The notes beneath the pieces are model-generated. The model saw only the letters and a program-made list of their open reading frames with translations. It did not search any database and had not been told where the DNA came from. Shown piece by piece: positions 17,149 through 37,980 of a stretch of DNA of 64,000 bases. The stretch covers positions 191,212 through 255,211 of the forward strand of contig JBBTSM010000003.1 in the NCBI GenBank assembly GCA_038064675.1, given 5' to 3'. Source of the stretch: Patescibacteria group bacterium (lineage in GTDB: Bacteria > Patescibacteriota > Patescibacteriia > UBA9934). The translations under genes were made by a program, and so were the position numbers. Positions within the stretch are counted from its first letter, which is position 1; each line of letters starts with the position of its first letter.

Positions 17149-17649
17149 TTATCCGAACAAAAACTTCACCACAGCATTCGGCTTTCGAATGTTTCCAAGC
17201 ACAATTGCATTCAATCCAAACGCATGACCCGCGCCACCAGCAGCAAACAACGCAAGAACCGCACTATAAATGATGTGTTCGTCGATGTAACCCATTGCCG
17301 TATTGCTCACAAAATGCGCAACGTAATACAGCGCCATGAGCACGATGCCAAGAATTGCCGCCGGGCGCACAAGCAATCCAACAATCAGCGCAATTCCAAG
17401 GCAAAGCAATCCCCACTCATTCACAAAATCGATGGCACTATTCCCTGCCAATGAGCGAAACCACTCCGAGAATGGACCCTCTGCTGTTGCAAGATACGTT
17501 GCAGCGCTCCATCCACCTACGGAAATCTTTGACCATCCGGCCGTAAGATACACACCCCCAAGGAGCACTCGAAGTGCAACGTACGCGACGCCAAAGCTCT
17601 TCTCATGCGTGGTCTCTGCAATTTTCCCAAGCTGCGATTGTGTACGCAT
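17149..17649 (-). CDS. DoxX family membrane protein
   Basis: 4-TM protein with LRVLLGGVYLTAGWSKI motif typical of DoxX. Confidence 0.55.
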   Translation of the reverse strand: MRTQSQLGKIAETTHEKSFGVAYVALRVLLGGVYLTAGWSKISVGGWSAATYLATAEGPFSEWFRSLAGNSAIDFVNEWGLLCLGIALIVGLLVRPAAILGIVLMALYYVAHFVSNTAMGYIDEHIIYSAVLALFAAGGAGHAFGLNAIVLGNIRKPNAVVKFLFG

Positions 17650-20940: not shown

Positions 20941-21057
20941 CGATGATGTATTGAACGCCTGTGAGATGTGATGAATAAGTGCCCGTAGAAGACGGCAGAA
21001 TAGTACTAAACTTTGCTAAAATTCGCAAATGAATCCTACAAAAATTCTGATATTTGT

Positions 21058-21160
21058 GGCGAGTTTCGATGAAGAGCGAGAAAATGTCCCGAAAACGTAC
21101 TTCTCGGTACGTTGAGGGAATTTTCGATGGTCTGAGTCGAAAATCGACCAAATAGCAGGA
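21058..21160 (+). repeat. ~100-bp intergenic repeat element, copy 2
   Basis: GCGAGTTTCGATGAAGAGCGAGAAAATGTCCCGAAAACGTACTTCTCGGTACGTTGAGGGAATTTTCGATGGTCTGAGTCGAAAATCGACCAAAT; upstream of rpsB (minus) start region. Confidence 0.65.
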
Positions 21161-23183: not shown

Positions 23184-23358
23184 TTTCCGCACTTATTCGG
23201 CTGTATACAAAGCAGCCTAACAAGAACCTTCCCATTTGGCCGATTTTCGACTCACGCCATCGGAAACTTTCTCACCGTACCGTTAAGTACGCCTCGAAAA
23301 TTTTCCTCGTCGTTCATCGAAACTCGTCACAAATGAAAAGGTTCTTACCAAAACCCTT

Positions 23359-29987: not shown

Positions 29988-30025
29988 AAGAATATCTTCT
30001 GACTTGATGAGGAATTTCTTATTTT

Positions 30026-30130
30026 AGACTAGTTTCGATGAACAGCGAGCAAAGTTTCCGAGGTGTACCTCTCGGTACATCGAGGAAATTTGCGATGATG
30101 TGAGTCGAAAATAGACAAAATAAGGAATTC
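30026..30130 (+). repeat. ~100-bp intergenic repeat element, copy 3
   Basis: TTTTAGACTAGTTTCGATGAACAGCGAGCAAAGTTTCCGAGGTGTACCTCTCGGTACATCGAGGAAATTTGCGATGATGTGAGTCGAAAATAGACAAAATAAGGAATTC; in divergent region between 29987 gene and gyrB. Confidence 0.7.
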
Positions 30131-30153
30131 CTCTTCTGTCAACAGGATTATAA

Positions 30154-32363: not shown

Positions 32364-32918
32364 ATGTTGCGCACGACAGGAAACACCGAGCCTCTCGAAA
32401 CCCCCAACGACGAGAAGCCGTTCGTCACGGTCGCTCTCGTGGTGACCATCGGCCACAACGCCCCGCCGTGCGTCCTCCGGGCGCTCGGCAAGGCGAGCCG
32501 CACGATCCTCTCGGCCGCGACGGTGGTGCCCCCGGACCAGGAGTGGGACTGGACGCCGGAGACGATGGACGAGATCGTCCTCGTTGCCAACGCCATCGTG
32601 AATGACCTCCTCACCACCCACTTCATCCTGCCCGAGCTCTCGCTGCCCCAGGACGACGAGGAGGGCGGCCCGAACATCTGGAACACGGACGTGCGCCGCG
32701 AGTTCGCGGTCGAGGTGAACCCGGAAGACCACGACGAGTTCTTCGTCCGGACGGCGATCCGGCTCGAGACCGCGGGCGGAAACCGAACGAGGCACCCCGA
32801 GCGCGCGACGTACGCGGCGGTCGTGCCCCCGGATCCGGACAGCGATCTCCCCGCGTGCATCACGTTCCACGGCAAGATCACCCGCGCGACGCACATCCCG
32901 GCCATCCGGCTGGAGTAA
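32364..32918 (+). CDS. GC-rich acidic hypothetical protein (orphan cassette)
   Basis: 184 aa, GC3 very high vs neighbours; own promoter TTGCAA-17-TATGAT (32290-32320) and RBS AAGGAGA; terminator GGCGGCCCCACCAGGCCGCCGC at 32937-32958. Confidence 0.45.
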   Translation: MLRTTGNTEPLETPNDEKPFVTVALVVTIGHNAPPCVLRALGKASRTILSAATVVPPDQEWDWTPETMDEIVLVANAIVNDLLTTHFILPELSLPQDDEEGGPNIWNTDVRREFAVEVNPEDHDEFFVRTAIRLETAGGNRTRHPERATYAAVVPPDPDSDLPACITFHGKITRATHIPAIRLE

Positions 32919-33054
32919 TCGCGCACCAACGACGCCAGCGGCGGCCCCACCAGGCCGCCGCGTTCGTTTTCCACCGACCCCCTTGCTCCCCCATCCAATT
33001 CGGTGTATATTCTCCCCATCAGCCGAAAGGCTTTTTTTGATACAATATTTCCGT

Positions 33055-33260: not shown

Positions 33261-33806
33261 ATGGCAAAACAAACCGCCAATTACGGCCGACGTTGGTACG
33301 TTATTCACACGTACTCTGGATACGAAGAAAGCGTGGTAGAAGCGCTCACTCAGCGTATGAGCACCATGGACATGGAGGAGAAGATTTTCAACATTCTCGT
33401 TCCAAAGGAAAAGAAGATTAAGATCAAGAACGGTGCACGTAAGGTTATCGAAGAAAAGATTTTCCCAGGCTATGTGCTCGTGGAAATGATCGTAACTGAC
33501 GACTCTTGGTACGTGGTGCGCAACACACCAAACGTTACGGGCTTCATCGGAACGGGAAATACTCCAACTCCGATCCCACAAGAACAGGTGGACGATCTCA
33601 TGAAGCGCGTGGGTGTCGCAGAACCAGAATTCAAGATCGACGTGGAAAAAGGCTCACTCGTTGCCATCACCGACGGTCCGTTCAAGGGCCAGCAAGGAAA
33701 GGTGGACGACGTGGACATGTCCCGCGGAAAGGTCAAAGTCATGGTCTCCATGTTCGGCCGCGAAACCCCGCTCGAACTCGACTTCCTCCAGGTCAAAAAA
33801 GTGTAA
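33261..33806 (+). CDS. nusG: Transcription termination/antitermination factor NusG
   Basis: RWYVIHTYSGYEESV… NGN domain and C-terminal KOW (…GSLVAITDGPFKGQQGKVDDVD…). Confidence 0.9.
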   Translation: MAKQTANYGRRWYVIHTYSGYEESVVEALTQRMSTMDMEEKIFNILVPKEKKIKIKNGARKVIEEKIFPGYVLVEMIVTDDSWYVVRNTPNVTGFIGTGNTPTPIPQEQVDDLMKRVGVAEPEFKIDVEKGSLVAITDGPFKGQQGKVDDVDMSRGKVKVMVSMFGRETPLELDFLQVKKV

Positions 33807-33811
33807 ACCAA

Positions 33812-33845
33812 AAATCACTCCGAGCAATCGGAGTGATTTTTGTTT
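33812..33845 (+). terminator. nusG terminator, prototype of a repeated hairpin family AAAAATCACTCCGAGCAATCGGAGTGATTTTT
   Basis: Perfect 12-bp stem + U tract; near-identical copies at 35279-35312 and 36776-36812. Confidence 0.6.
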
Positions 33846-33897
33846 CATTTAACTGTACACATATAAATGGAAATACTGATAAAACGACCAAAGATCG

Positions 33898-34335
33898 TTA
33901 ATTAAACAAGGCTGAGCGAAGCCGAACCGCACGCTCCAAGATTCGCTTGCCAACGTTGCCCCAGTCAACATATTTATCCCAGTCATTTAGGTCTATACGT
34001 TTGATTTTTGTAACACTACCGCTCGGATCACTCTCAAAGTCGGCAACAGGCTCAACGGTACAGAGCGAACGTAGCTGGAACACAAAGCTCCCGTCTGAAC
34101 GAATAACTTTTTGGTATCCAATCGGACGATGCCCGAGAACTCGCATGTTCGATTCTTCTTTTACCTCACGTATCAACGCGTCATCAACGGTTTCGCCGGG
34201 CTCAATCTTTCCACCCAATAAACTCCAACGCCCCTGCTTTTCGTGCCATCCAACAACAATTTTATCCCCGTAAAAAACAAACACCATAGTGCTGATTGAT
34301 TTGTTCGACCGGTAGATCCGCGAAAGAATCAGCAT
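33898..34335 (-). CDS. NUDIX hydrolase
   Basis: Nudix box GGKIEPGETVDDALIREVKEESN. Confidence 0.7.
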   Translation of the reverse strand: MLILSRIYRSNKSISTMVFVFYGDKIVVGWHEKQGRWSLLGGKIEPGETVDDALIREVKEESNMRVLGHRPIGYQKVIRSDGSFVFQLRSLCTVEPVADFESDPSGSVTKIKRIDLNDWDKYVDWGNVGKRILERAVRLRSALFN

Positions 34336-34496
34336 CCCGATAGATAACCTCGAAATCAGTATTTCCGTCAGTGAATCGTTCTCTGAGCTCCATATGAAAG
34401 GAATTATAGACCTCGTGATGGTGGAATGGCTACGATCTGCATTTTTGCGGTCAAGATGTCGTCAGCAACGGTTTCCACGATGTTTTTTGTTTTGAG

Positions 34497-35267
34497 ATGA
34501 TACAATCGGCAAATATGATAAAGAGCGAAAAACTGGAAGCACAAGAATCGATTCTCGATACGCTCAAAAAAGAAGGAATGCTCTCTTTTGACGTCAAGCT
34601 GACACCCGAAGAAAAAGTCTGCATTCATGATGTCCGCATTGAACACAATGTCTCTGATCTCAATCACTACGGGAATATCGATGAAGTTCTTGTAAAGAAT
34701 CTACGAACATACCTAAACCAGCTAGGAGCTAACGCGGAAGAAGTCACAAAAACTATAGCCGAGCTTATTACAAGACTCGCAGAGGTCATGCGAAAAACTT
34801 TCAATAAAAGTTCTGTCTGGCTTGCCGTCCGCACATCGTTGCCGAATACCGATTGGGACGTTCCACGTTGGCACAGAGATGGCGGATTTTTGAATGATGA
34901 CAACGGAAATCTTGTCACCGAAGAATTCAAACTCGTCTTTACGCTCAAGGGAGCACCGACGCGTTTTGCAGAAGTCATCGACATACAAAAATTCGAAGAA
35001 TATGAACGGGAAGAAATACTCAATAACGAACACGATGGGTTAGAAGGTTACGAGGAACGAGCCCTGGCCATACGACGAAAACTTGAAGAAACCGTTCGAG
35101 AAATTCCTGTCGGGAAAAAAGGATTCGCCACAATCTATCGCGTAGACGGAACACACGGAAAAATTCATTCCGAGCCCGAAATCACCGAGCCCCGAATTTT
35201 CATATCAATCATCACCGGGTCTCAATCCCAAATCGAAGAGCTTCAGCGTCGTTTTTCATCCTATTAA
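34497..35267 (+). CDS. hypothetical protein, possible cupin/Fe(II)-2OG oxygenase-like (HxD…H: RWHRDGG … GTHGKIHSEPE); AT-rich
   Basis: 256 aa; putative facial-triad spacing only; composition differs from core genes. Confidence 0.35.
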   Translation: MIQSANMIKSEKLEAQESILDTLKKEGMLSFDVKLTPEEKVCIHDVRIEHNVSDLNHYGNIDEVLVKNLRTYLNQLGANAEEVTKTIAELITRLAEVMRKTFNKSSVWLAVRTSLPNTDWDVPRWHRDGGFLNDDNGNLVTEEFKLVFTLKGAPTRFAEVIDIQKFEEYEREEILNNEHDGLEGYEERALAIRRKLEETVREIPVGKKGFATIYRVDGTHGKIHSEPEITEPRIFISIITGSQSQIEELQRRFSSY

Positions 35268-35278
35268 TAATGACATTA

Positions 35279-35312
35279 CAAAAATCACCCCGAACAATCG
35301 GGGTGATTTTTT
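35279..35312 (+). terminator. copy of nusG-type terminator hairpin (AAAAATCACCCCGAACAATCGGGGTGATTTTTT)
   Basis: Sequence family match to 33812-33845. Confidence 0.55.
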
Positions 35313-35416
35313 ATTGACTTTTTCTGATTTTTATGCCATATTTCCCTGTTGATTCTTTCACAAGGAGCCCCTGTCGATATCTCAAGTCGATAGAGGTCCC
35401 TTGTGTAGGAGTCTCC

Positions 35417-35671
35417 ATGTCATCAGTGCGCACCGCGGCTCTCCTCGTCGCAATCAGCGCCCTCACATTCGCCCTCTCCGGCGCTCTGACCCTGTGCGTC
35501 AAGAGCACCATCACGATCTGGTGGCCGATCGGATGGACCATCTTCTATGTGGTGCTGACCGTGGCAGCTCGGCGCCGGAAGGACCTTTGGCAGAACTTCT
35601 CGATGAAGGCGGGCTGTGCAGCCCTGATCTCCATGAGCCTGGGAATGCTTGCCGCCCTGCTGTGGCCCTAG
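35417..35671 (+). CDS. small GC-rich 2-TM membrane protein (module 1, partner of M41-like peptidase)
   Basis: 85 aa; RBS AGGAG 5 nt upstream; followed by GC hairpin CGGCGTCGGCTCTTCCCGGGGCCGACGCCG. Confidence 0.45.
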   Translation: MSSVRTAALLVAISALTFALSGALTLCVKSTITIWWPIGWTIFYVVLTVAARRRKDLWQNFSMKAGCAALISMSLGMLAALLWP

Positions 35672-35803
35672 ACTAGACGAAGCGGACGTTCAACTCCGCA
35701 ACGACGCTCGGCGTCGGCTCTTCCCGGGGCCGACGCCGTTCACGTTTTCATTGCTTTTTTGGTTCTTTTTGGCTAATGTCCTTCTGCTCCAAACGGAGGA
35801 AGC

Positions 35804-36295
35804 GTGATCGACGACATCAATGAAATCTCACGAACCATCGTGCATGAAGCTGGCCACGCCACTGTAGGCGTCTTGCTATTCCCCGACGAAATCGTCTGGG
35901 TCAGCGCCATCCCCAATCCATCGTCACTGGGACGGGCACTTACTACGGTTACACTAGAAATGGTCGTTCGTTACCCGACTGAACGGTTCATCGACTATCT
36001 CGCGTTCCTTTTTGCGGGACGAGCGGCCGAAGAAAATCGGTTCAGCAACTACAAGGACTGGATGTCCCGGCATGATGAACAGAGTGCTCACGAAGCGCTC
36101 CACCAATATCGGGCCATGCATCCAAAACTCCTCCACAATGACCAGGATCTCACCACTCAGGCACGCCAGCGTGCTCACGAGATTCTCGTCAGAGAACAAT
36201 CTCTCTTCCACACGCTCACGTCGGGCCTCGTCCGCTACGACCAGTTCGGTCAGGAATGGCTCCTCTACAACTATTACCTCTTCGCCACGACGTAG
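35804..36295 (+). CDS. standalone FtsH-type M41 zinc-metallopeptidase domain protein (no AAA ATPase, no TM)
   Basis: HEAGHA zinc motif (IVHEAGHATVGVLL), IP…LG…, and GRAAEE motif (LFAGRAAEENRF) aligned as in FtsH protease domain; GTG start with GGAGGA RBS. Confidence 0.6.
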   Translation: MIDDINEISRTIVHEAGHATVGVLLFPDEIVWVSAIPNPSSLGRALTTVTLEMVVRYPTERFIDYLAFLFAGRAAEENRFSNYKDWMSRHDEQSAHEALHQYRAMHPKLLHNDQDLTTQARQRAHEILVREQSLFHTLTSGLVRYDQFGQEWLLYNYYLFATT

Positions 36296-36332
36296 CGCCG
36301 ACCCTCCCCAGGGTCGGCTCTTCCGTTTTATT
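36283..36332 (+). repeat. 50-bp duplicated 3' flank ACGACGTAGCGCCGACCCTCCCCAGGGTCGGCTCTTCCGTTTTATTG (copy 1)
   Basis: Near-identical to 37379-37430; includes terminator hairpin GCCGACCCTCCCCAGGGTCGGC. Confidence 0.6.
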
Positions 36333-36378
36333 GTCTTTAACGATCTTTCCGGTTATTGTCATTTCTATATCGCCTCTT

Positions 36379-36774
36379 ATGACGCTCTCCTCAAAAATCG
36401 AAACAGGTATTGTGCTCGTCTCCGGAGCGCTGCTCCTCCTTCTCCTTGCCGGCATAGCCAATAATATCCTCCTTGCACGGGAAGGGCTTTTCGACGCCGG
36501 GTACCATCATCAAACAATAGCGCACAACGGTCCAAGAAATGGAGATATCGATTTATGGAGTGAAGAGAAACCATACCTCTGCTCATATTTCAAAATGCAC
36601 AGCGACGGCGCGATCGGCTTTCACTGCACAACCGGCGAGTACCTAAAGCAGGAAATCCTGAACCTTCCAAACATCCTCGTCTTTTTCCTCTTCGGCTTAC
36701 CACTCCTTGTGATCTTCACCGGCACTAGTCTTGTGCTCATTTCCGAAATCAAGGCGGAAAAGACCCTGGTGTAA
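36379..36774 (+). CDS. small 2-TM membrane protein (module 2)
   Basis: 131 aa; N- and C-terminal TM helices; promoter TTGTCT-17-TATTGT at 36330-36358. Confidence 0.45.
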   Translation: MTLSSKIETGIVLVSGALLLLLLAGIANNILLAREGLFDAGYHHQTIAHNGPRNGDIDLWSEEKPYLCSYFKMHSDGAIGFHCTTGEYLKQEILNLPNILVFFLFGLPLLVIFTGTSLVLISEIKAEKTLV

Positions 36775-36775
36775 A

Positions 36776-36812
36776 CAAAAAATCACTCCGAGCGCAACCG
36801 GAGTGATTTTTT
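36776..36812 (+). terminator. copy of nusG-type terminator hairpin (AAAAAATCACTCCGAGCGCAACCGGAGTGATTTTTTG)
   Basis: Sequence family match to 33812-33845. Confidence 0.55.
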
Positions 36813-36866
36813 GTTGCATTTTTTATAATCAATCGATAACCTTTCTTTGCTTTGGGAGTGAATACA

Positions 36867-37367
36867 ATGCCGAACGCAACTTGGCGTACGTTAACCCAAG
36901 GGATTCCCCGAAATCAGACAACCGCTCACGCAGCCGTTCATGAGGCCGGCCACGCCACTCTGGCAACGATTCTCTTTCCGGCGACGATTGAATACGCGAC
37001 GATCATCGAAGCAGGAGGAGTAATGGGCAGCGTCAAGTACTCCTGTACCAACGCATCCATCTGCTCGCGACAAGAAAGCATGAACGTCCTCGCCGTTGCG
37101 ATGGCGGGACGGGCGGCGGAAGAAATCGAGTTCGGGTACTCTATCGACCTCGGAAGCTTCTTTGATTACGGCGTTGTCCGAAACCATCTGTGTAGTCGCA
37201 ACGCAAATGGTCGCAGACTTCACGAATCAAAAGACTTCCTCATCGATGTAGCGCTCAAGCGCGCGCACGAAATTTTGGTCAAAGAACGAGAGCTCTTTCA
37301 CCAGATCATCGCCGGCTTGATTCGGGAAAATCGCCTCGATCGCGCAGCGCTTCTTGCGCTTCAGTGA
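36867..37367 (+). CDS. standalone FtsH-type M41 zinc-metallopeptidase domain protein, paralog 2
   Basis: AVHEAGHATLATIL … MAGRAAEEIEFG; GGGAG RBS 7 nt upstream of ATG. Confidence 0.6.
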   Translation: MPNATWRTLTQGIPRNQTTAHAAVHEAGHATLATILFPATIEYATIIEAGGVMGSVKYSCTNASICSRQESMNVLAVAMAGRAAEEIEFGYSIDLGSFFDYGVVRNHLCSRNANGRRLHESKDFLIDVALKRAHEILVKERELFHQIIAGLIRENRLDRAALLALQ

Positions 37368-37378
37368 GCAATACAAAA

Positions 37379-37430
37379 CGACGACGTAGCGCCGATCCTC
37401 CCCAGGGTCGGCTCTTCCGTTTTATTGACT
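37379..37430 (+). repeat. 50-bp duplicated 3' flank (copy 2)
   Basis: ACGACGACGTAGCGCCGATCCTCCCCAGGGTCGGCTCTTCCGTTTTATTG. Confidence 0.6.
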
Positions 37431-37554
37431 ATTTCCGCCAATCCTGGCACAATCTTGTCACTAAATAACGATGTAGTTGCTCGAAGATTTACCGAGAGGA
37501 AATCGAGGGAATCTACTATAAATTCATCGAATTCAATATTCGAGGTCGTACACT

Positions 37555-37980
37555 ATGGCAAAGAAGATCAAGGCAGTTATCAAAGTGCAATCAATCGGAG
37601 GTCGGGCAACACCAGCACCTCCACTCGGACCAGCGCTCGGTGCGCAGGGTGTGAACATTCAGCAGTTCGTGCAGGAATTTAACGCAGCAACACAGGACAG
37701 AATGGGAGAGACAGTTCCAGCAATCATCACCATTTATGAAGACCGCACATTCAGCTTCATCCTGAAGACTGCTCCAGCGAGCGATCTTGTGAAAAAAATC
37801 ACGGGAATCGAAAAGGGATCCGGAAAGCCACTCACTGAAAAGGTGGGAAAGATCACCCAGGCTCAGTTGCGCGAAGTTGCGATGAAGAAAATGCCAGACT
37901 TGAATACGACCAATGTAGAGGCTGCGATGAAAATCATCGCTGGCACCTGTCGTCAAATGGGAGTCGATGTCATTGCTTAA
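37555..37980 (+). CDS. rplK: 50S ribosomal protein L11
   Basis: [43 protein letters not shown]…. Confidence 0.95.

Follow-up and report, generated by a model that had tools for sequence, protein, structure and literature searches.

The tiny genomes of the candidate phyla radiation (CPR; Patescibacteria) contain few recognisable mobile elements, and the gain of accessory genes in these organisms is poorly understood. Elsewhere, tandem accretion of the ICESt type produces arrays of integrative and conjugative elements (ICEs), integrative and mobilizable elements (IMEs) and cis-mobilizable elements (CIMEs), which are flanked by att sites and accumulate at the 3' end of a conserved gene. In homology-facilitated illegitimate recombination, which has been demonstrated experimentally in Acinetobacter and Streptococcus, a homologous anchor on one side is combined with a joint at microhomology on the other. 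The subject of the present work is a 3.75-kb islet of six small cargo genes inserted between nusG and rplK in a 64,000-nt stretch of DNA ("the window": positions 191,212 to 255,211 of contig JBBTSM010000003.1, assembly GCA_038064675.1) from a Candidatus Uhrbacteria genome (Patescibacteria/CPR) of Hainich groundwater. Each cargo gene is closed by a copy of one of two terminator-like repeats, here called TA and TB, which follow one another across the insert in the order TA, TA, TB, TB, TA, TB, and comparison with relatives indicates that both are copies of terminators native to this junction, not ends carried by the cassettes. The best reading is that the locus records stepwise recombination at an insertion hot spot, and not a new kind of mobile element.

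Several described systems resemble this arrangement in part. The minimal mobile elements of Neisseria are alternative whole-gene cassettes that lie between two conserved genes without mobility genes, and their exchange is attributed to homologous recombination through the flanks, in the account of Saunders and Snyder (2002) as far as it is cited in PMC1797815; the concept has also been applied in PMC3787668. The window locus is likewise a core-flanked slot with lineage-specific cassettes and no mobility genes, but here a single genome carries several cassettes in a row, with duplicated native terminators between them, and the host is an uncultured CPR bacterium for which transformation is an assumption. 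Putative mobile promoters are intergenic segments of 50-100 nt that have been propagated 5' of unrelated genes (PMC3488235); the present locus shares with them the reuse of a conserved 50-nt non-coding segment beside non-homologous genes in one genome, but only a terminator and a −35 hexamer are conserved here, and the spread is confined to one locus. Integron arrays and clusters of attC sites lacking integron-integrases (CALINs) are like the islet in that mostly single-gene, largely co-oriented units are each followed by a hairpin repeat which is more conserved than the genes. The islet differs from them in having no integron integrase (IntI), no R'/R'' boxes and no imperfect attC, in that its cassettes have promoter-like sequences, and in that its hairpins are canonical terminators native to the empty site. 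As in ICE/IME/CIME accretion, direct repeats that hold the 3' end of the target gene (here the GTGTAA of nusG) separate successive inserts; unlike it, the islet comprises single-gene units of 0.4-1.5 kb and two interleaved repeat families, and no integrase was found in the insert or across most of the window. Homology-facilitated illegitimate recombination, finally, adds foreign DNA beside an anchor and can duplicate recipient sequence, which fits both the copied nusG end in the third TA copy and a second locus, L024, described below.

The gene order of the region is secE, nusG, the insert, the rplK promoter and leader (37425-37554), rplK and rplA, and all features are on the plus strand except where stated. 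The left core anchor, nusG (33261-33806; 181 aa), matches Pfam NusG at 7.6e-30 as well as KOW, and the right anchor is rplK (L11; 37555-37980). The first TA copy (33801-33853) begins with the last codon and stop of nusG, GTGTAA, and runs through a hairpin, hp1 (33809-33842), into a T-tract. The stem of hp1 is a perfect 15 bp with a GCAA loop, an A-tract and a T-tract lie on its flanks, and its predicted fold has an energy of -22.7 kcal/mol (z-score -9.4). A NUDIX hydrolase cargo gene (33898-34335, minus strand; Pfam NUDIX 3.8e-11) converges on hp1, whose A-tract/T-tract symmetry has the form of a bidirectional terminator. The second copy (35279-35320) follows a cargo gene of 250 or 256 aa (34515-35267; no family match, function unassigned); its hairpin, hp2 (35280-35311), is identical to hp1 at 30 of 33 positions, and a single compensatory pair (T to C with A to G) accounts for two of the three differences. 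The third copy (36769-36821) consists of GTGTAAAC, the hairpin hp3 (36774-36815) and TTTTTTGTTGCATTT, and it closes a gene for a predicted membrane protein of 131 aa (36379-36774), an open reading frame (ORF) that ends GTG TAA. Here 39 of 43 positions agree with hp1, and the loop is 2 nt longer. The first and third copies resemble each other along 53 nt, which open with GTGTAAAC, where nusG ends with its last codon and stop, and close with CATTT; the alignment scores 73 against a maximum of 28 in 31 control stretches. The GTGTAA of the third copy, with which the 131-aa gene terminates, has the same sequence as the nusG end. The TA consensus is AAATCACYCCG...CGGRGTGATTT.

The TB family is represented most clearly by a 50-nt repeat, D2, at the ends of two genes for proteins that consist only of an FtsH protease domain: M41a (35804-36295; 163 aa, HEAGH motif, Pfam Peptidase_M41 7.2e-8) and M41b (36867-37367; 166 aa, Pfam 5.8e-11). 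The copies D2-1 (36287-36336; ACGACGTAG, a hairpin at 36297-36318, then TCTTCCGTTTTATTGTCT) and D2-2 (37381-37430) are identical at 48 of 50 positions, while the coding DNA upstream is 46.7% identical and only 17 of the next 50 nt match. The last two codons and TAG of M41a fall within D2-1, so that D2 carries the M41 stop codon; its T-tract is interrupted (TCTTCCGTTTTATT), and its motif is GCGCCGAYCCTCCCCAGGGTCGGC. A diverged TB copy at 35700-35752, with a GC-rich hairpin (35709-35737; -28.8 kcal/mol) and CGTTTTCATTG, ends the gene of a predicted membrane protein of 84 aa (35417-35671), an ORF which is called as a gene in independent assemblies. This hairpin has GTCGGCTCTTCC in common with D2, and its closest counterparts are the hairpins just 5' of the rplK promoter in the related loci L010 and L011 (scores 40-42, reached by none of 2000 shuffles). 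D2-2 occupies the native position directly 5' of the rplK promoter, whose −35 box, TTGACT, makes up the final bases of the copy. At the end of D2, as in the tail of hp2 (TTTTATTGACT; TTTTTTATTGACT in the second TA copy), a T-tract runs straight into the −35 hexamer of that promoter, or into one resembling it.

An earlier interpretation made from the letters of the window alone, the sequence-only reading, had noticed that the nusG hairpin recurs after the 250/256-aa gene (given as 34497-35267) and the 131-aa gene and that both M41-like genes end with the same 50-bp segment; these observations are borne out, with coordinates that agree to within a few bases. It had passed over the convergent NUDIX gene with the bidirectional form of hp1, the 53-nt extent of the likeness between the first and third TA copies, the diverged TB hairpin, and the fusion of T-tract and −35 hexamer.

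The duplication of promoter sequence at the boundaries is limited in extent. The candidate idea that a whole terminator-plus-promoter module had been duplicated at each boundary was rejected, since a hidden Markov model (HMM) of the rplK promoter built from 35 relatives matches only the true promoter (TTGACT-N17-CACAAT; E 3e-7), and the sequences after hp2 and after the GC-rich TB hairpin give E values of 22 and 110. What is demonstrably shared at the boundaries is only the T-tract with an ATTG(A/T)CT motif. Predicted promoters lie at 35314-35342 and 37425-37453.

All six elements sit 0-37 nt 3' of a stop codon, with a GC-rich stem of 9-17 bp followed by a T-tract, and all repeat copies fold strongly (-20 to -29 kcal/mol, z-scores from -4 to -9); they fit the form of intrinsic (Rho-independent) terminators and are predicted to act as such. 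Because this form is generic, it has to be considered whether the likeness of the copies has arisen by chance, or whether the arrangement is an artefact of assembly, several short contigs being broken at D2. The probability of either is negligible. The stems, loops and flanks are shared over 33-53 nt, and no shuffle or control comes near the observed scores. The sequence-only reading would have been undone had the copies proved no more alike than terminators in general, but eight other strong terminator hairpins in the window have stems unrelated to those of TA and D2, and among 147 other nusG terminators only that of L011, and partly that of L090, match hp1. A search of the 64-kb window for further copies, which that reading had proposed for the genome, found none of TA or D2 outside the nusG–rplK insert (the observed counts were reached in 0 of 100 shuffles). 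As regards assembly, proteins identical to those of the window occur in GCA_964357295.1 and on contigs from ENA ERZ1292630 and samples related to it, and the same order of genes and repeats is found in independent assemblies of several samples (L003, L004, L005, L175-L177; L003 and L004 span all the repeats). Agreement of this kind between assemblies that cross the repeats and were made independently from different samples shows that the arrangement is no chimera. A copy of D2 forms the exact start or stop of several short metagenome contigs (L008 at 1-38, and the ends of L005, L176 and L177); such breaks are expected for a 47-nt repeat in short-read assembly graphs, and they could hide structural variants at this point.

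The origin of the two repeats can be read from the same junction in relatives. Loci with nusG were taken from 80 species representatives and 80 metagenome contigs, and 147 of them hold both nusG and rplK. In close relatives with an empty site, the nusG stop is followed by one terminator hairpin, TTTTATTGACT-N17-CACAAT, a conserved leader and rplK. TA is the nusG terminator of L011, to which the window copies are 93-100% identical, GGTGTAAAC included: the first copy at 93% over 46 nt, the second at 94.7% over 38 nt, and the third at 26 of 26 positions of the L011 nusG-end allele. With compensatory changes in the stem, TA is also the nusG terminator of L010, L015, L016, L017 and L090. In L014, L018 and L091, of which the L018/L091 lineage comes from the same well, nothing but the TB/D2 hairpin (88-92% identical) lies between nusG and the rplK promoter, and in L017 this hairpin follows a single M41-like gene and is identical to D2 at 32 of 32 positions, ACGACGTAG included, although the core DNA of that locus is only 76-78% identical to the window. 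The clade has two homologous families of junction terminator, TA adjoining nusG and TB adjoining the rplK promoter. Because TA is the nusG terminator of L011 and TB is the sole junction element in empty relatives, both repeats are copies of native junction terminators and not ends borne by cassettes, and the copies take in adjoining bases of the junction as well: the stop codons of nusG and of M41 and the rplK −35 box. In addition, hp3 carries ACAAAAAATC, a detail of the L011 type, and hp2 and hp3 both have six T's, features that hp1 does not have; L011-type details without a match in hp1 are expected if the copies stem from different alleles.

The interval itself is a gene-insertion hot spot between two very conserved genes in this Uhrbacteria lineage. 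Across the 147 loci the gap between nusG and rplK ranges from 3 nt to 5.9 kb, with 87 loci below 160 nt, 24 at 160-499 nt and 36 of at least 500 nt, and the inserts are concentrated among the closer relatives: a gap of at least 500 nt is found in 23 of the 47 loci with NusG identity of at least 80%, versus 13 of the 100 below 80%. The same core-gene interval holds different cassettes in different lineages, as in the minimal mobile elements, and most cargo ORFs have no homologue in other loci. Even L010 and L011, whose NusG protein is 100% identical to that of the window, differ from it in cargo.

Simpler islets in relatives match parts of the insert. L013 has a single cargo gene, which encodes a 207-aa homologue of the 256-aa protein, and homologues of the 250/256-aa gene (45-49% aa identity) occupy the same slot in L010, L011 and L013. 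The NUDIX gene is absent from these three loci, where the 207-aa gene comes directly after the nusG terminator. L010 and L011 contain the 207-aa gene, a membrane-like ORF of about 88 aa (from frame translations) and a TB hairpin; a tblastn comparison gave no similarity between the 84-aa protein of the window and this ORF at the same position. The window block 34515-35752 is collinear with the insert of these loci, in which a weaker hairpin is the positional orthologue of hp2. That weaker hairpin, which follows the 207-aa gene, was also considered as an inverted copy of the nusG terminator and was rejected (score 27 against a control maximum of 39). At the other end, the L017 interval is collinear over its full length with the window block 36769-37555 (GTGTAA, TA, M41, TB, promoter), and the sequence that immediately follows TA corresponds as well. 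What the window has over the simpler islets is the NUDIX gene, M41a and the 131-aa gene, the last of which has no homologue in 169 loci. The fact that the simpler versions in relatives match sub-blocks of the insert supports a stepwise build-up, as the sequence-only reading had suggested, with the difference that the repeats at which the steps are visible are native to the site and are not the ends of incoming cassettes.

It is then necessary to determine whether duplication of the terminator is the regular footprint of insertion. Every insert-bearing locus was searched for copies of its own nusG terminator, direct and inverted, with flanking DNA as the control, and a duplicated terminator was detected in only two of about 60 such loci, the window and L024. 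In L024 a lipoprotein-like gene stands between two 32-nt copies of the nusG terminator of its own lineage, which differs from that of the window (score 47 against a control maximum of 23), and L026 provides the matching empty site. Duplication of the terminator around cargo has thus arisen at least twice, yet it is exceptional; with only two of about 60 loci affected, it is an occasional by-product and not the signature of the insertion mechanism, which argues against an obligatory footprint of an insertion enzyme. The earlier proposal of a mechanism for building an accessory island consequently survives as regards the variable cargo slot between nusG and rplK, and less well as regards a general role for the duplication. 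In other lineages, inserts of about 500 bp directly after nusG have terminal inverted repeats of 17-18 nt and resemble miniature inverted-repeat transposable elements (MITEs) (L134, 1859-1876/2373-2390; L141, 7567-7583/8028-8044), and in L107 (1670-1913) the hairpin GCGGGTACTTAGAACCCGC occurs three times within 250 nt.

These results bear directly on site-specific integration, in which a recombinase acting in trans would direct integron-like or att-type cassettes to the hairpin and regenerate it on both sides of the insert. The hairpin that bounds each single-gene cassette, the likeness of the duplicated segments (32-55 nt) to attL/attR direct repeats, the recurrence of the pattern with a different hairpin in L024, and the T-tract plus TTG common to all boundaries would all be accounted for in this way. 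The remaining evidence makes such integration distinctly improbable. Among the genes called over roughly positions 2,500-62,500 of the window, none has an integrase or transposase domain on record, IntI included, and no recombinase was found in any nusG–rplK insert examined. Searches of the cargo proteins in Pfam, PADLOC, PHROGs and NCBIfam gave only the NUDIX and FtsH-domain matches and no mobility genes; the sole match in a defence library is that of the NUDIX protein to the candidate family PDC-S07, and the cargo amounts to the NUDIX gene, one unassigned gene, two genes for small membrane proteins and two M41-like genes. The R'/R'' boxes of attC are lacking, since GTTRRRY does not occur within 40 nt of any element and RYYYAAC has only two stray matches, and the stems form perfect palindromes in which the extrahelical bases of attC sites are missing. 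The hairpin is native to the empty site and varies in sequence between lineages through compensatory changes, and duplication at two of about 60 loci, with no cognate recombinase, is not the pattern of att repeats at every insert. The stem motif AAATCACYCCGR, with one mismatch allowed, occurs nowhere else as a hairpin in the 64 kb, and the viral contigs of IMG/VR contain no exact match to the D2 hairpin. Nor do the repeats behave as a MITE or insertion sequence (IS), since the TA and D2 copies are direct repeats confined to one locus in the window. No Rfam family reaches its gathering threshold in the window, with only sub-threshold chance matches near the repeats. A role of the stem motif as a DNA uptake sequence was also rejected: within one mismatch it is found only in the three hairpins and in one isolated one-mismatch match at 17458, and a motif so confined is not a dispersed uptake signal. 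The suggestion in the sequence-only reading that recombination took place at terminator sequences accordingly stays plausible as such, with no recombinase, attC-type boxes, or circular or deleted variants found. A bolder version, in which the junction terminators serve as the recombination sites of a cassette-capture process in CPR bacteria, either integrase-independent or acting in trans, and the whole hairpin is regenerated on both sides of the incoming gene, is a long shot; if true, it would be analogous to attC/attI recombination in integrons or to the duplication of the repeat during CRISPR spacer integration, built on ordinary terminators.

The two M41-like genes allow the history of the repeats to be separated from that of the genes they follow. 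M41a and M41b are 35% identical in amino acids and, as noted above, 46.7% in DNA, and each is 32-38% identical to the homologues in L017, L171 and L172, so that they are no closer to one another than to these. Since the two genes are as diverged from each other as from homologues of other lineages, the likeness of the repeats does not follow the history of the genes, and the near-identity of the D2 copies is due to recent copying or homogenisation of short tracts, or to strong constraint, and not to a recent gene duplication. The 3' end of M41b is informative in this respect. M41b is about 9 aa shorter than its homologues, and its +1 frame (37340-37389) reads ...SEQYKTTT* and ends at the TAG of D2-2, with the same TTT* ending as the L017 homologue; a 1-nt frameshift, by which about nine residues were lost from the C-terminus, is therefore probable in M41b. 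Since the +1 frame ends at the D2 TAG, D2 would already have been the 3' end of M41b before the frameshift.

An older duplication in situ is a separate matter. An ancestral unit of membrane gene, terminator, M41 gene and TB could have been duplicated in tandem with a period of about 1095 nt, after which the coding sequences diverged to saturation while selection and gene conversion preserved the terminators. The spacing is suggestive: the D2 copies lie 1094 nt apart and the 25-mers that code for HEAGHAT 1096 nt apart, both units are ordered as small membrane protein, hairpin, M41 and D2, and an interleaved repeat order is typical of such events. The relationships within the units point the other way. 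The M41 homologues diverge in a star-like manner, M41a and M41b at 35% being no closer than the 32-38% to other lineages; the two membrane proteins have no detectable similarity, and the hairpins that follow them belong to different families (TB versus TA). Furthermore, hp3 holds the stop codon of nusG, and a duplication confined to the insert would have left that codon uncopied. On balance this origin is rather unlikely, though it deserves to be kept in mind.

Short proteins of 162-166 aa with only the FtsH protease domain form a tiny orphan family, with five cluster representatives among 1.84 billion, four of which lie between nusG and rplK in Uhrbacteria-like genomes; the members (window 35804-36295 and 36867-37367; L017 898-1392; L171 127-615; L172 192-689) are 32-45% identical to one another. 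A word-indexed homologue search with M41b returned only itself and one unrelated high-GC protein, on a contig (L170) without a similar context, and the latter was discarded.

The reading preferred here, to which a probability of roughly 0.55 may be attached, is that the islet grew step by step as versions of the same locus recombined with one another. Donor and resident would be different versions of the nusG–rplK interval, with an anchor in the conserved nusG or rplK flank and a second joint that is either illegitimate or formed in short homology at or near the terminator; unequal crossing-over through these flanks and the short homologies of the terminators is an alternative. Each event would add donor cargo, retain resident cargo and leave a second copy of a junction segment of 30-55 nt together with the stop codons beside it. 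While the genes diverge, the copies would then be homogenised by gene conversion over short tracts or by recombination that enters from the conserved flank, and selection for efficient termination, which insulates the essential rplKA operon, would keep the copies alike. Recombination of this kind would explain the nusG end in one copy, the L011-type details of hp2 and hp3, and the intact L017-like block at the right end, and homology-facilitated illegitimate recombination would be its most economical route here.

Several points weigh against stepwise recombination. No donor, intermediate or polymorphic structure was found: the comparison of strains that the sequence-only reading had proposed, for presence or absence of individual cassettes, was made by exact-protein look-ups of NusG, RplK, M41b and the 131-aa and 250-aa cargo proteins, and all contigs with the exact cargo proteins show the same order, the NusG look-up adding only an L010-type locus. 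The interleaved order of the repeats needs several events, for which there is no unique ordering, and duplication of the promoter beyond the −35 hexamer is without statistical support. Natural transformation, or some other route of transfer, is assumed, and gene conversion between repeats of 30-50 nt is suggested by the pattern of identity. Strong purifying selection on D2 as a functional element would explain its conservation equally well.

Other features of the region may be described briefly. The rplK promoter, in the form TTGACW-N16-TGGCACWMT, and the leader that follows it (CACTAAATAACGAYGTRGTYGCT, a variable hairpin and GGAATCYACTRTAAA) are strongly conserved in about 49 relatives; the leader looks like an autoregulatory ribosomal-protein leader, but it matches no Rfam family. 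Between gyrB and secE lies an ORF of 184 aa (32364-32918, plus strand) with 68% G+C, compared with 51.6% for the window; it has its own GC-rich terminator (32938-32961) and no family match. L010 holds different genes between gyrB and secE, so that this interval looks like a second variable slot beside the first.

A palindromic interspersed repeat of 110-135 nt, with the look of a MITE or a repetitive extragenic palindromic (REP) element and a core TAGTTTCGATGAACAGCGAGCAAAGTTTCCGAGG...CGAGGAAATTTGCGATGATGTGAGTCGAAAATAG, is unrelated in sequence to TA and D2. It has four copies in the window (29991-30140, 1922-2056, 21051-21154 and, on the minus strand, 23234-23334) and no match to an Rfam family. 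In relatives it occurs in L012 and L091 (three copies each), L018 (two), L014, L061 and L009 (433-550), and it is also found within the nusG–rplK spacer 3' of the rplK leader. In a strain whose RplK is identical, it lies between rplK and the gene that follows.

As it stands, the locus is a well-documented case of a known phenomenon, the core-flanked hot spot, made unusual by one detail of its structure. Between two of the most conserved genes of bacteria it still bears legible traces of acquisition, in the form of duplicated native terminators and a copied nusG stop codon, and because each newcomer is insulated by a predicted terminator, the essential rplKA operon keeps its own promoter. If the recombination route is true, it would provide a simple, enzyme-free model of the growth of islets in reduced genomes.

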